A stretch of DNA of 11,784 nt from the UHGV virus genome UHGV-2165552; one strand, 5' to 3'. Source of the DNA: a virus. Made by a program: the position numbers. Each line of letters begins with the position of its first letter. The first letter of the stretch is position 1. This document shows, in pieces, positions 9,001-11,784 of this stretch.

Positions 9001-11784
9001 CGGATGTCTGGGTTCGTCATGAAGAGCTTGATGGTGTGCTCAAAAAGCAACAACAGGATGAGCAGTTGCGGCAGGTACAGCAGGCGCAGGAAAGAGAACA
9101 GGTGGCTCTTGCAGAAGCGGAGAACAGTTTTGTGGTTAGCGTTGGTGGTCAGGATGTGGATTTGAGCAAACTCACGTCCGCACGGCTGGCAACGTTGTGT
9201 GAGGCAGAAGAGCTGAATATTCACAAAGACCCGAAAGAAACGGCTGATGCATTTCGTGTCCGTGTGCGTGAGGCATTTCGCCGTCGTGTTGCGGAGACTG
9301 AACAGCATGGCGGAACTGACTGATTTTTTACCGTATGTCCGTCGCCATATCAGTGGTCCGCTGAACATTATGATGACGGATGCGTTATCCATGTCGGCAG
9401 TGGCATTCTGCCGTCAGTCCCTGTTGTGCCGCCGTGAAGCCACGCTGTCACCGTCAGCCGGAGAGGACTGTGTGCTGCCATATGACGCGGAGAATGAAGA
9501 GTGCGTACATATTATTCGTATCCTCGCTGACGGGCGTGAGCTTTTTGCCGGTCATGATGTGGAAATCCGCCCGGGGCGGGTAATGCATTTTGCCTGTTCG
9601 CCCGGAGAGGTGAGTGTGCTTTATGCCGTTGCTCCGAAAGCAGGGAGCCGTCAGGTGCAGGATGAACTGCGGGCATGGTCTGAAGAAGTGGCTGCAGGGG
9701 CGCTTGAACGGTTGTTCATGCAGACCGGGGTTTCATGGTCAGACCCGTCGCGCGCACAGTATTTCTCTGTGCTGTTTTCTGAGGGTATCCGTCGGGCATA
9801 TCGCGACACACTGGCGACAAGTCCGTACTCCTCATACCGCAATCCTGTCCGCAGACAAAGGTTTTACTGATGACGACGATTACTGAAATCATCGGACGAG
9901 TGAACACGCAACTGGTTGACCCGATGATGGTGCGCTGGCCTCTGGCTGAGCTGTGTGATTATTACAATGATGCTGTGCGGGCGGTGATTCTGGCAAGGCC
10001 GGATGCAGGCGCAAGTCTGGAGACGCTGAATTGTGTTCCTGGTGCACGTCAGACTTTGCCTGATGGCGCAATACAGCTTCTTGACGTGATATGCCTCAGC
10101 GATGGCAGTGCTGTAAAACCGCAATCCCGTGAGGTGCTTGATGCACAGTATCCCGACTGGCACATGCTGAGGGGGAAACCGGAATGCTTTATCAGCAGTG
10201 ATCTTGCCCCGCGCGTGTTCTGGCTGTTTCCGGCACCGGAGGAGGCTGTGAGTGTTGATGCTGTGGTCAGCCGCATTCCGGAGGCGGTGTATGTTCTGAC
10301 GCAGGATGATGACACGCCTGTACCGCTGGAAGAGGCTTATGTTAACCCGCTGGTTGACTGGATGTTGTTTCGTGCATTCAGCAAGGATGCAGCCGGTGGT
10401 GCAGAGTCAGGACTGGCAGCACAACATTATCAGAGTTTTGTTGAGCAGCTCGGGATTAAACAGGGTGCAGACAGTGCATTGTCTGCCCGCAAGAAGGTGT
10501 TTAACGGAGGTGGAATGTGAGTGTTGTTGTTTCGGGGACGCTGAAATCTCCTGATGGTGAGGCAATATCAGGCGCAAATATTACCCTGACGGCGCTGACA
10601 GTTTCACCGGATGCGCTCAGCGGCACCAGTGCGTCAGCAGTGACTCGTGACGGCGGGTATTACGGAATGACGCTGGAGCCGGGGGAGTATGCGGTTTCTG
10701 TGACGGTGAAAGGGAAGACTGCTGTCTACGGACGTGTGCGTATTGAGGGGACTGAAAGTACGGTGACGCTCAATATGCTGTTACGCCGCAGTCTTGTTGA
10801 GGTGAGCATACCCGGAGAACTGCTGACAGATTTCCGGCAGATACAGAACAATGTGGCGGATGACCTTGCCACGATTCGTCGTCTGAACGAAGACACGGCG
10901 GTGAAAAATAATCAGGCTTCACAGTCGAAGGAAAGCGCTGCTGCCAGTGCGAAGACTGCATCAGAAAGCGCGAAGGCTGCGACAAGCAAAGCGACGGAGT
11001 CTGCACAAAAAGCCAGTGAGGCTGCAGAGGCGGCGACCCGGGCAGGTGAGTCTGAAAAGGCAGCGGCAGCTGACGCTAAAGAGGCCAGACGACATGCTGA
11101 AACCGCCAGAGTGGCTCAGGAAGCCGCCGGAGACGTTCTTAAACGTGCTGAGGCTGCTACGGTTAGTGCTGAAGAAGCCAGACGTATGGCTGAGAATGCA
11201 CGAGGACCTAAAGGCGATACAGGGCCGAAAGGTGATGCTGGTCCTCGTGGTGAAACAGGTCCGGCGGGTCCGCGTGGGGAGAAAGGTGAGCAGGGAGAAC
11301 GCGGACCTCAGGGCATACCGGGCCAGAAAGGTGATACAGGAGAACGGGGACCTCAGGGAGTGCAGGGGCCAGCTGGCGCAACAGGGCCATCTGGCCCACG
11401 TGGTGCGACCGGGCCACAGGGAGCAATGGGGCCGCGTGGTGAAACCGGGGCCAGAGGCGAAAAAGGAGACCCGGGGGGGCCTCAGGGACCAAAGGGGGAT
11501 GCTGGTCCGAGAGGTGAGCCGGGGCCGAAAGGTGACACCGGCCCACGTGGAGAGGCCGGACCACCCGGACCACCCGGACCACCCGGACCACAGGGTCCGG
11601 CAGGGCAAACCGGCCCGAAAGGGGATAAAGGTGAACCCGGCGCAACAGGTCCGGCAGGTCCCGCAGGCCCACGGGGACCGGCTGGTGCAGCTGGTCCCAA
11701 AGGTGATGCAGGCCCCGCAGGAAAGGATGGTACCGCCGGAGCGGAAGGTAAGGCAGGTCCGGCAGGGCCACGAGGTGAAAGGGG

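Follow-up and report, generated by a model that had tools for sequence, protein, structure and literature searches.

A 9-bp in-frame tandem repeat of variable copy number within the collagen-like part of a prophage lateral tail-fibre gene

Results

A variable 9-bp array in a collagen-like fibre shaft

The virus genome UHGV-2165552, a stretch of 11,784 nt that was analysed as a whole and is called the window here, is a late-gene module of a 933W/phi24B-like short-tailed Escherichia coli prophage (Sepvirinae). The window ends inside a lateral tail-fibre gene, whose 5' part (10517–11784, plus strand; 1268 nt, 422 codons) opens with a GTG start and whose open reading frame (ORF) leaves the window at its end. 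Homologues of this gene are annotated as 'tail fiber protein'. The visible product runs from a putative virion-attachment domain through a low-complexity rod into a collagen-like Gly-X-Y shaft (11204–11784, plus strand; 65 visible triplets), which matches PF01391 (Collagen) with 107.7 bits against a cutoff of 27.2 (E=2.5e-31). Within the shaft lies a 9-bp tandem array (11556–11591, plus strand) that differs in copy number among homologues.

The array consists of four perfect copies of a 9-bp unit, (CCGGACCAC)x4, over 36 nt, and Tandem Repeats Finder (TRF) returned the unit CCGGACCAC at 11556–11591 with a period of 9, 4.0 copies and 100% matches. Read in codon register, three identical units of GGACCACCC (11558–11566, 11567–11575, and 11576–11584) are followed by a fourth, GGACCACAG (11585–11593), whose last two bases are unlike those of the others. 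The array is in frame with the ORF that begins at GTG 10517 and codes for residues 348–359 of the 422 visible ones, and all Pro-Pro dipeptides of these 422 residues fall within it. An earlier note on this DNA had described three identical 9-bp units and a fourth with two base differences, all in frame, and this description is borne out by sequence reading, TRF, and translation.

The array was also set against three null models of the 579-nt collagen-coding stretch, with 20,000 draws each, in which we counted the draws that contained a perfect period-9 tract of at least 36 nt. No such tract arose when whole Gly-X-Y units were shuffled (0/20,000) or when codons were shuffled inside the G, X, and Y positions (0/20,000), and a synonymous redraw of the codons with the protein held fixed reached it once (1/20,000). 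Because the null models almost never reach the array, its identity at the DNA level exceeds what a collagen-like protein demands. This identity indicates recent duplication.

Copy-number alleles among homologues

The homologue set comprised 13 annotated homologues together with viral and metagenome contigs, which were scanned for exact flanks with a variable gap. We defined the allele site as the DNA between CCACGTGGAGAGG and AGGGTCCGGCAGGGCAAAC, and 82 sequences were found to have these identical flanks. In all 82, the gap is a whole number of perfect CCGGACCAC units and nothing else. Two units, which give one GPP triplet, are present in 66 sequences, and three units (two GPP triplets) are present in 14, while a single unit (no GPP triplet) and four units (three GPP triplets) are each represented by one sequence, the latter being the window itself. 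The comparison of the collagen region among homologues had been set as a test beforehand, and it returned repeat numbers from one to four and regions of varying length instead of a uniform number and length. Moreover, the prediction that copy number would change in multiples of three residues without a frameshift held for the 82 sequences, each allele being made of whole units and in frame.

Two other kinds of variable locus were considered. A frame-switching, phase-variable contingency locus was ruled out, as the unit of 9 nt is divisible by three and every allele is in frame. A diversity-generating retroelement was set aside, as no reverse transcriptase is encoded in the window and whole units are inserted or deleted (indels), in place of the substitutions specific to A that such an element would leave.

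In 5,426 complete E. coli genomes, one unit occurs in five related probiotic or faecal strains, two units in about thirty, three units in one, and four units in none. The sole complete genome with three units is that of JNEC-KY204, which is also the nearest complete genome to the whole window (98.7% identity), so that the window carries the longest allele seen, one unit beyond this relative. The presence of four units in the window only, among the 82 sequences and the complete genomes, might point to a sequencing or assembly artefact with a shorter true allele, all the more as the window stops inside a repeat-rich gene, like many draft contigs, and contains a suspicious repeat-bounded deletion ~25–70 nt downstream of the array (repeat 11615–11677, junction 11660–11694). 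We consider such an artefact very unlikely, because 36 nt should be covered by any modern read and by k-mers of at least 33, because alleles of one to three units are real in finished genomes, and because four units are a single step from the three of the nearest relative.

The scan of viral contigs gave no array of more than four units between the CCACGTGGAGAGG and AGGGTCCGGCAGGGCAAAC flanks, and a scan of species-representative genomes for the flanked pattern gave no match. At the protein level, the site GEAG(PPG)nPQGPAGQ was absent from the 120 representatives listed when the 422-aa fragment was compared with a collection of 5.8 billion protein sequences, a comparison that yields no copy-number data. 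The bare 36-mer, (CCGGACCAC)x4, had 75 matches (L084–L158) in a search of one genome per species, mostly in Streptomyces, other high-G+C Actinomycetota, Myxococcota and similar; none of the matches listed was in E. coli or its relatives. In viral contigs, the bare 36-mer had one match. We take the matches in high-G+C genomes to be unrelated occurrences of a Pro/Gly-rich 9-mer.

Flanking haplotypes and the two fibre classes

Alleles of two and of three units were both found on identical 195-nt flank haplotypes and within both classes of fibre that carry the collagen module, the short-tailed (933W-type) class and the lambdoid side-tail-fibre (Stf-type) class. Furthermore, the downstream background exists in a standard form and in a form that is 15 residues shorter, and all four combinations of these forms with two or three units were seen. 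There has therefore been recurrent change at the array, or recombination within ~100 nt of it.

Stf-type genes have a different N-terminal half, and their similarity to the window begins ~38 nt upstream of the array. This boundary, at ~11518, thus places the array next to a recombination boundary between the two fibre classes. From there on, the module is at least 99% identical in lambdoid genes with a 'prophage tail fiber N-terminal domain', single genomes contain up to 10 matching places, and one genome (IMG 643348545) has four contigs with three, two, three, and two units, respectively. The larger events at this gene, namely those involving a 63-bp repeat, a 282-bp deletion, and a duplication, are plainly repeat-mediated recombination. 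These observations would all fit a reading in which paralogous collagen-like fibre genes in co-resident prophages generate most of the alleles between them, by unequal homologous recombination or by gene conversion, and slippage within one gene plays a minor part. However, changes of a single 9-bp unit in a perfect array between identical 195-nt flanks are the classic signature of slippage, and we regard a predominance of recombination as possible rather than probable. The two processes are compatible, and the sequence alone does not separate them.

Contribution of the array to fibre length

Among complete fibres carrying the exact collagen module, 15 short-tailed (933W-type) genes encode proteins of 591–677 aa, with 11 distinct lengths and 67–99 Gly-X-Y triplets, and 53 Stf-type genes encode proteins of 337–614 aa, with 23 distinct lengths and 42–93 triplets. 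At ten prophage loci that share a 100% identical adaptor protein with the window, the fibres measure 566, 576, 625, 653, 662 (three loci), 674, 677, and 690 aa. The 566-aa fibre (L161 3648–5348, E. coli CU928162.2, a complete genome) has a first collagen domain of only ~12 triplets, the stretch between GERGPQG and PRGEPGPAG having been deleted in frame. Large losses of collagen sequence that keep the frame are thus present in a complete genome.

Given a rise of ~2.9 Å per residue, a value taken from PMC3368898, one GPP unit corresponds roughly to ~0.9 nm of shaft, and the whole shaft would measure several tens of nm. The array shifts the shaft by at most three triplets, against an overall range of 42–99 triplets, and most of the length polymorphism must therefore come from other repeats and from larger recombination events. 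The array had been proposed as a route to fibre-length polymorphism; this stands insofar as the series of one to four units and the fibre lengths vary in frame, but the array itself accounts for only a minor share of the length.

Other 9-bp repeats lie close by. A GPA-GPA in-frame repeat at 11646–11667 (plus strand; TRF period 9, 2.4 copies) is polymorphic in homologues, one of which (L076) has one GPA less at this site, and GPA runs range from 1 to 4 units across homologues. A third 9-bp site of putative slippage (11705–11725, plus strand) was identified by alignment; the window has one GCAGGCCCC unit here and most homologues have two, with the single-unit allele found also in L014 and L169. 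Similarly, GPQGPQ(GPQ)GPT varies near the fibre C terminus and SVASV alternates with SV. The segment from the array to the non-collagen interruption of the shaft exists in 15 distinct variants among the 82 sequences. Compared with the fibre gene of phage PhiR12_3, the window shows three indels: a gain of 18 bp (two GPP units), a loss of 9 bp (one GPA unit, 11705–11725), and a loss of 282 bp.

An apparent 282-bp deletion and the Phage_fiber_2 cassette

What the 282-bp deletion removes is the last part of the first collagen run together with the entire non-collagen interruption (SVASVPDASTSQKGVVQLSSDTNSDDETKAATPKAVKAV...), which is the Phage_fiber_2 (PF03406; Pf2) repeat. Pfam gave no PF03406 match in the 422 aa of the window, and the 3' part of the gene beyond the window could still hold Pf2. 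A direct match was obtained for PhiR12_3 (L001; 57.3 bits) and for one Stf-type relative, and the Pf2 motif KG[VI]V[QL]LSS is present once in 25/25 complete short-tailed (933W-type) homologues.

In PhiR12_3, a perfect 63-bp direct repeat, with copies at gene nt 1081 and 1363 and thus 282 bp apart, flanks Phage_fiber_2, whereas the window has a single copy of this segment (11615–11677, plus strand), as expected of the deletion product. In JNEC-KY204 (L002), the second repeat copy has diverged, and the junction falls within a microhomology of 11 nt, or of 17 of 18 nt. Compared with this genome, the deletion junction of the window (11660–11694, plus strand) is made up of the microhomology CCCGCAGGCCC(A)CGGGGA at 11660–11677, which is common to copies A and B, followed by B-specific sequence at 11678–11694. 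Where the interruption is kept, GAAACCGGCCCCGCAGG is the sequence path that leads from the 11677 side into Phage_fiber_2. A metagenome contig (L046 7155–7720; ERZ773150 NODE-4107) has a tandem duplication of the 282-bp unit, the reciprocal product of the deletion in the window, and two low-coverage metagenome contigs (L032 and L056) have lost the interruption via another junction. With none in the window, one in most homologues, and two in L046, the cassette thus occurs in 0, 1, or 2 copies.

The exact deletion junction of the window was not found in a scan of viral contigs, and the zero-copy cases are all of short-read or unknown source. De Bruijn assembly with k no larger than 55 would be expected to collapse exactly such a repeat of 56–63 bp, and we put the chances that the deletion in the window is real and that it is an assembly collapse at about even.

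Assembly behaviour of the fibre gene

The fibre gene as a whole is more than short-read assembly can resolve. Thirteen of 81 contigs stop inside it, and four clusters of deposited 'partial' proteins (147, 53, 99, and 12 members) end ~5–40 residues from the start of the collagen region. Contigs that carry the adaptor gene group at lengths of 10–20 kb. The 11.8-kb window, which stops in the collagen region, conforms to this picture of breakage. The earlier note had expected assembly collapse in this region. For the 36-bp array this is unlikely, because any read or k-mer of at least 33 should span it, while contig breakage was seen and collapse is possible at the longer repeats of the gene. Draft assemblies regularly break off in this gene and may mis-join there. 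Without long reads, no trust should be placed in the lengths given for fibre genes, in 'partial' annotations, or in an apparent loss of a domain, such as that of Phage_fiber_2 here.

In a further set of depositions from draft or Logan assemblies (P0014, P0016, P0017, P0020, and P0023–P0028), a frameshift lies where the collagen region begins or shortly past that point, and the protein reads on in an Arg/Lys-rich alternative frame. These frameshifted fibres are either sequencing errors or real pseudogenes.

Domains of the visible fibre

The GTG start at 10517 overlaps the stop of the adaptor ORF (9870–10520), and homologues show the identical 4-nt overlap of start and stop. Two minus-strand ORFs in the same region (10961–11608 and 11208–11771) were set aside as presumed side effects of the GGN/CCN periodicity that the strongly supported plus-strand gene shows.

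The N-terminal domain (10517–10816, plus strand; ~aa 1–100) is carboxypeptidase-regulatory-like, or PfN-like, and matches PF13620 (CarboxypepD_reg) over aa 5–86 with 36.5 bits against a cutoff of 32.3. PF08400 (Prophage tail fibre N-terminal) aligns over profile positions 1–128 of 134 with 20.1 bits, under its cutoff of 26.6; Stf-type relatives with the collagen module reach 145 bits for the same family. By analogy with the cryo-EM of phi24B gp61, this domain would serve in attachment to the virion and would end near residue 100. The Ala/Ser/Glu/Lys-rich, low-complexity rod that follows (10817–11203, plus strand; ~aa 101–229), delimited by residue composition, is called 'PCoil' and is presumed to be a trimeric coiled coil, an assignment adopted from PMC3368898 and from the phi24B preprint. 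TRF detected a periodicity of 21 nt (7 residues) at 10949–11013, within the Ala/Ser/Lys-rich rod ahead of the collagen domain. In the visible shaft, Pro occupies the X position in 30 of 65 triplets and the Y position in 8 of 65, and the register is broken a single time, by GDPGGPQG at 11465–11488. The C terminus of the fibre lies beyond the window, and homologues have three alternative domains at this end (...GLFQRAY, ...TLFQRIA/V, or ...GIDNGM).

Genomic setting and nearest relatives

According to PHROG assignments of the ORFs, the window contains, in order, a Rha-like regulator, the small terminase, the large terminase, the portal, a conserved unknown protein, an N4-gp56-type major capsid protein, three small virion proteins, the adaptor, and the fibre. 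The fibre therefore adjoins the adaptor in a terminase-portal-capsid-adaptor module, whose order is kept in homologues. In relatives, the region downstream of the fibre (e.g. L002 5417–7886) encodes a DUF4376 protein, a probable fibre assembly protein or chaperone, and a YadA-like trimeric autotransporter-type adhesin. The latter gene, which lies outside the window, is unusual as cargo or as a virion gene for a phage.

The small terminase gene (1328–2134) also contains a tandem repeat, an in-frame 12-bp unit, AAATCGATCATG, at 1464–1516 (4.4 copies, 87% matches) that codes for KIDHEIDHKTDHEIDHD, and a weaker 12-bp repeat at 1557–1593. In 40 rows sampled from 402 matching records, full-length matches have the same span except for two, which are 12 bp shorter. 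The small terminase repeat thus seems to vary far less than the perfect collagen repeats do.

Over 10500–11784, the nearest phages are PhiR12_3 (97.4% identity), PhiR5_2, and GER2 (Sepvirinae, Oslovirus), which are prophage-derived and do not carry Shiga toxin (Stx). The 5' portion of this region (10500–11045; query 1–546) has 89.9% nucleotide identity to 933W L0121, the VT2-Sakai fibre, and scores of other Stx phages. The collagen part of the 933W-type Stx phages, however, has diverged from the window, and megablast covers only 42% of the 1285-nt query. None of the collections searched contains the window itself.

Discussion

Our analysis indicates that the array is very probably an in-frame variable-number tandem repeat (VNTR) of a 933W/phi24B-like E. 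coli prophage, situated in the collagen-like shaft of its trimeric lateral tail fibre and changed by slippage or misaligned recombination. In replication, the nascent and template strands would misalign by one 9-bp unit; alternatively, misaligned copies would recombine. Either event would add or remove one Gly-Pro-Pro triplet and keep the frame, and each unit gained would make the triple helix ~0.9 nm longer and supply one more Pro-Pro-Gly. For the fibre, a change in copy number would probably make little difference and be close to neutral. Besides the array, the gene would have further 9-bp sites of slippage in its GPA, GPQ, and SVA repeats, and the polymorphism would be increased by in-frame deletions and duplications of larger size and by an exchange of modules with lambdoid side-tail-fibre genes. 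These larger events would proceed by homologous or microhomology-mediated recombination, perhaps with a contribution from phage recombinases or from exchange among co-resident prophages.

Support for this reading of the array is provided by its perfect units, by the whole-unit alleles, by the other 9-bp sites, which vary likewise, and by the spread of fibre lengths behind an identical adaptor protein; the larger events are bounded by repeats. Several points weigh against it. What was observed are the expected products of slippage, not the event itself, and the allele of four units comes from the window as a single source. In addition, shared alleles may stem partly from module transfer between paralogous fibre genes and not from independent events, and three lone haplotypes pair a change at the array with an opposite 3-residue indel nearby, which fits strict neutrality imperfectly.

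Gly-Pro-Pro is the most stabilising unhydroxylated collagen triplet, and Pro-Pro-Gly is a strong ribosome stalling motif that depends on elongation factor P (EF-P). The number of GPP units could accordingly be imagined to be adaptively tuned, whether for the stability of the triple helix, for the number of EF-P-dependent stall sites, or for a constant length of the segment before the Phage_fiber_2 knot. It would agree with such tuning that the array is the sole source of Pro-Pro in the 422 residues and that Pro is infrequent at the Y position of related proteins (PMC3368898). The three lone haplotypes also bear on this possibility: in the segment PRGEAG...VPDAS, JNEC-KY204 (L002) combines a GPP gain with the loss of one SVA, the G1/2 group combines a GPP loss with the gain of one GPA, and L076 combines a GPP gain with the loss of one GPA. 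L002, L007, and L076 each offset the GPP change in this way by an opposite 3-residue indel that restores a segment of 60 residues, and no two-unit sequence has a lone indel of three residues in either direction. However, nine sequences have three units that are not compensated, shafts range from 42 to 99 triplets, and the compensation, seen in three haplotypes, reaches ~p=0.045 over 12 haplotype classes, uncorrected for relatedness. We consider such tuning unlikely; with such small numbers, the compensation pattern is only a lead. It is likewise improbable, in our estimate, that the shaft does not drift freely, with the segment from the register break to the knot held near a preferred length by compensating 9-bp indels, the 282-bp knot cassette switching between one-stalk and two-stalk forms by repeat-mediated recombination, and the GPP tract acting as a stability clamp or as an EF-P-dependent pause.

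The reading of the array as an in-frame VNTR in a fibre shaft can be placed beside several known systems. In phage Sp5, the homologue ORF67 was identified as the tail fibre by deletion and immuno-EM (PMC5155283). In phi24B, gp61 forms six lateral trimeric fibres, in each of which an N-terminal domain for attachment is followed by a coiled coil and by a long, flexible collagen-like shaft that is briefly interrupted in its middle, and a small globular domain forms the C-terminal end (bioRxiv 10.64898/2026.04.10.717836). The window shares with 933W L0121, Sp5 ORF67, and phi24B gp61 both the position of the gene after the adaptor and the layout of N-domain, presumed coiled coil, and collagen shaft, and the 89.9% identity over 546 nt holds for 933W and Sp5 alike.

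A further comparison is with the collagen-like proteins that Ghosh et al. 2012 (PMC3368898) described from E. coli prophages (EPclPs). According to that paper, EPclB has the organisation PfN-PCoil-Col-Pf2-Col-PfC and the lengths of the Col domains among EPclPs vary by multiples of three residues. EPclPs resemble the window fibre in their carboxypeptidase-regulatory-like N-domain, Ala/Ser-rich rod, Gly-X-Y repeats with Pro mostly at X, and GxPGGPxG break, and the 21-nt periodicity of the window may correspond to their heptad-like 'PCoil'. Full-length homologues of the window fibre likewise have Pf2 between two Col domains, as in EPclB. On the other hand, the N-domain of the window is the short-tailed-phage variant, with PF08400 under its cutoff, and the visible fibre is without the Pf2 interruption, which gives it an EPclA-like layout. 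We did not find this specific series of (CCGGACCAC)n alleles in the sections of the paper that were consulted.

BclA and Lcl are functional analogues. In Bacillus anthracis BclA, in-frame variation in the number of Gly-X-Y triplets alters the length of a trimeric surface filament (Sylvestre et al. 2003, as cited in PMC10470788). BclA differs in that it is a glycoprotein of the Gram-positive spore surface, has GPT-type repeats and far larger copy ranges, and is homologous only in the collagen motif. The Lcl adhesin of Legionella pneumophila (PMC6460258) also has a coding tandem repeat in its collagen-like domain that is polymorphic among isolates and serves as a VNTR marker, but it is built of longer repeat units, and effects of their number on adhesion and biofilm have been measured.

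Triplet-step variation of collagen length in these proteins was thus already published in 2012 (PMC3368898), and the four-allele locus and the cassette of 0, 1, or 2 copies add detail to it. The array is usable as a four-allele marker that splits otherwise near-identical 933W-like prophages. Furthermore, the fibres of 566–690 aa that stand behind a 100% identical adaptor protein show the pace at which the length of a collagen-like shaft changes.

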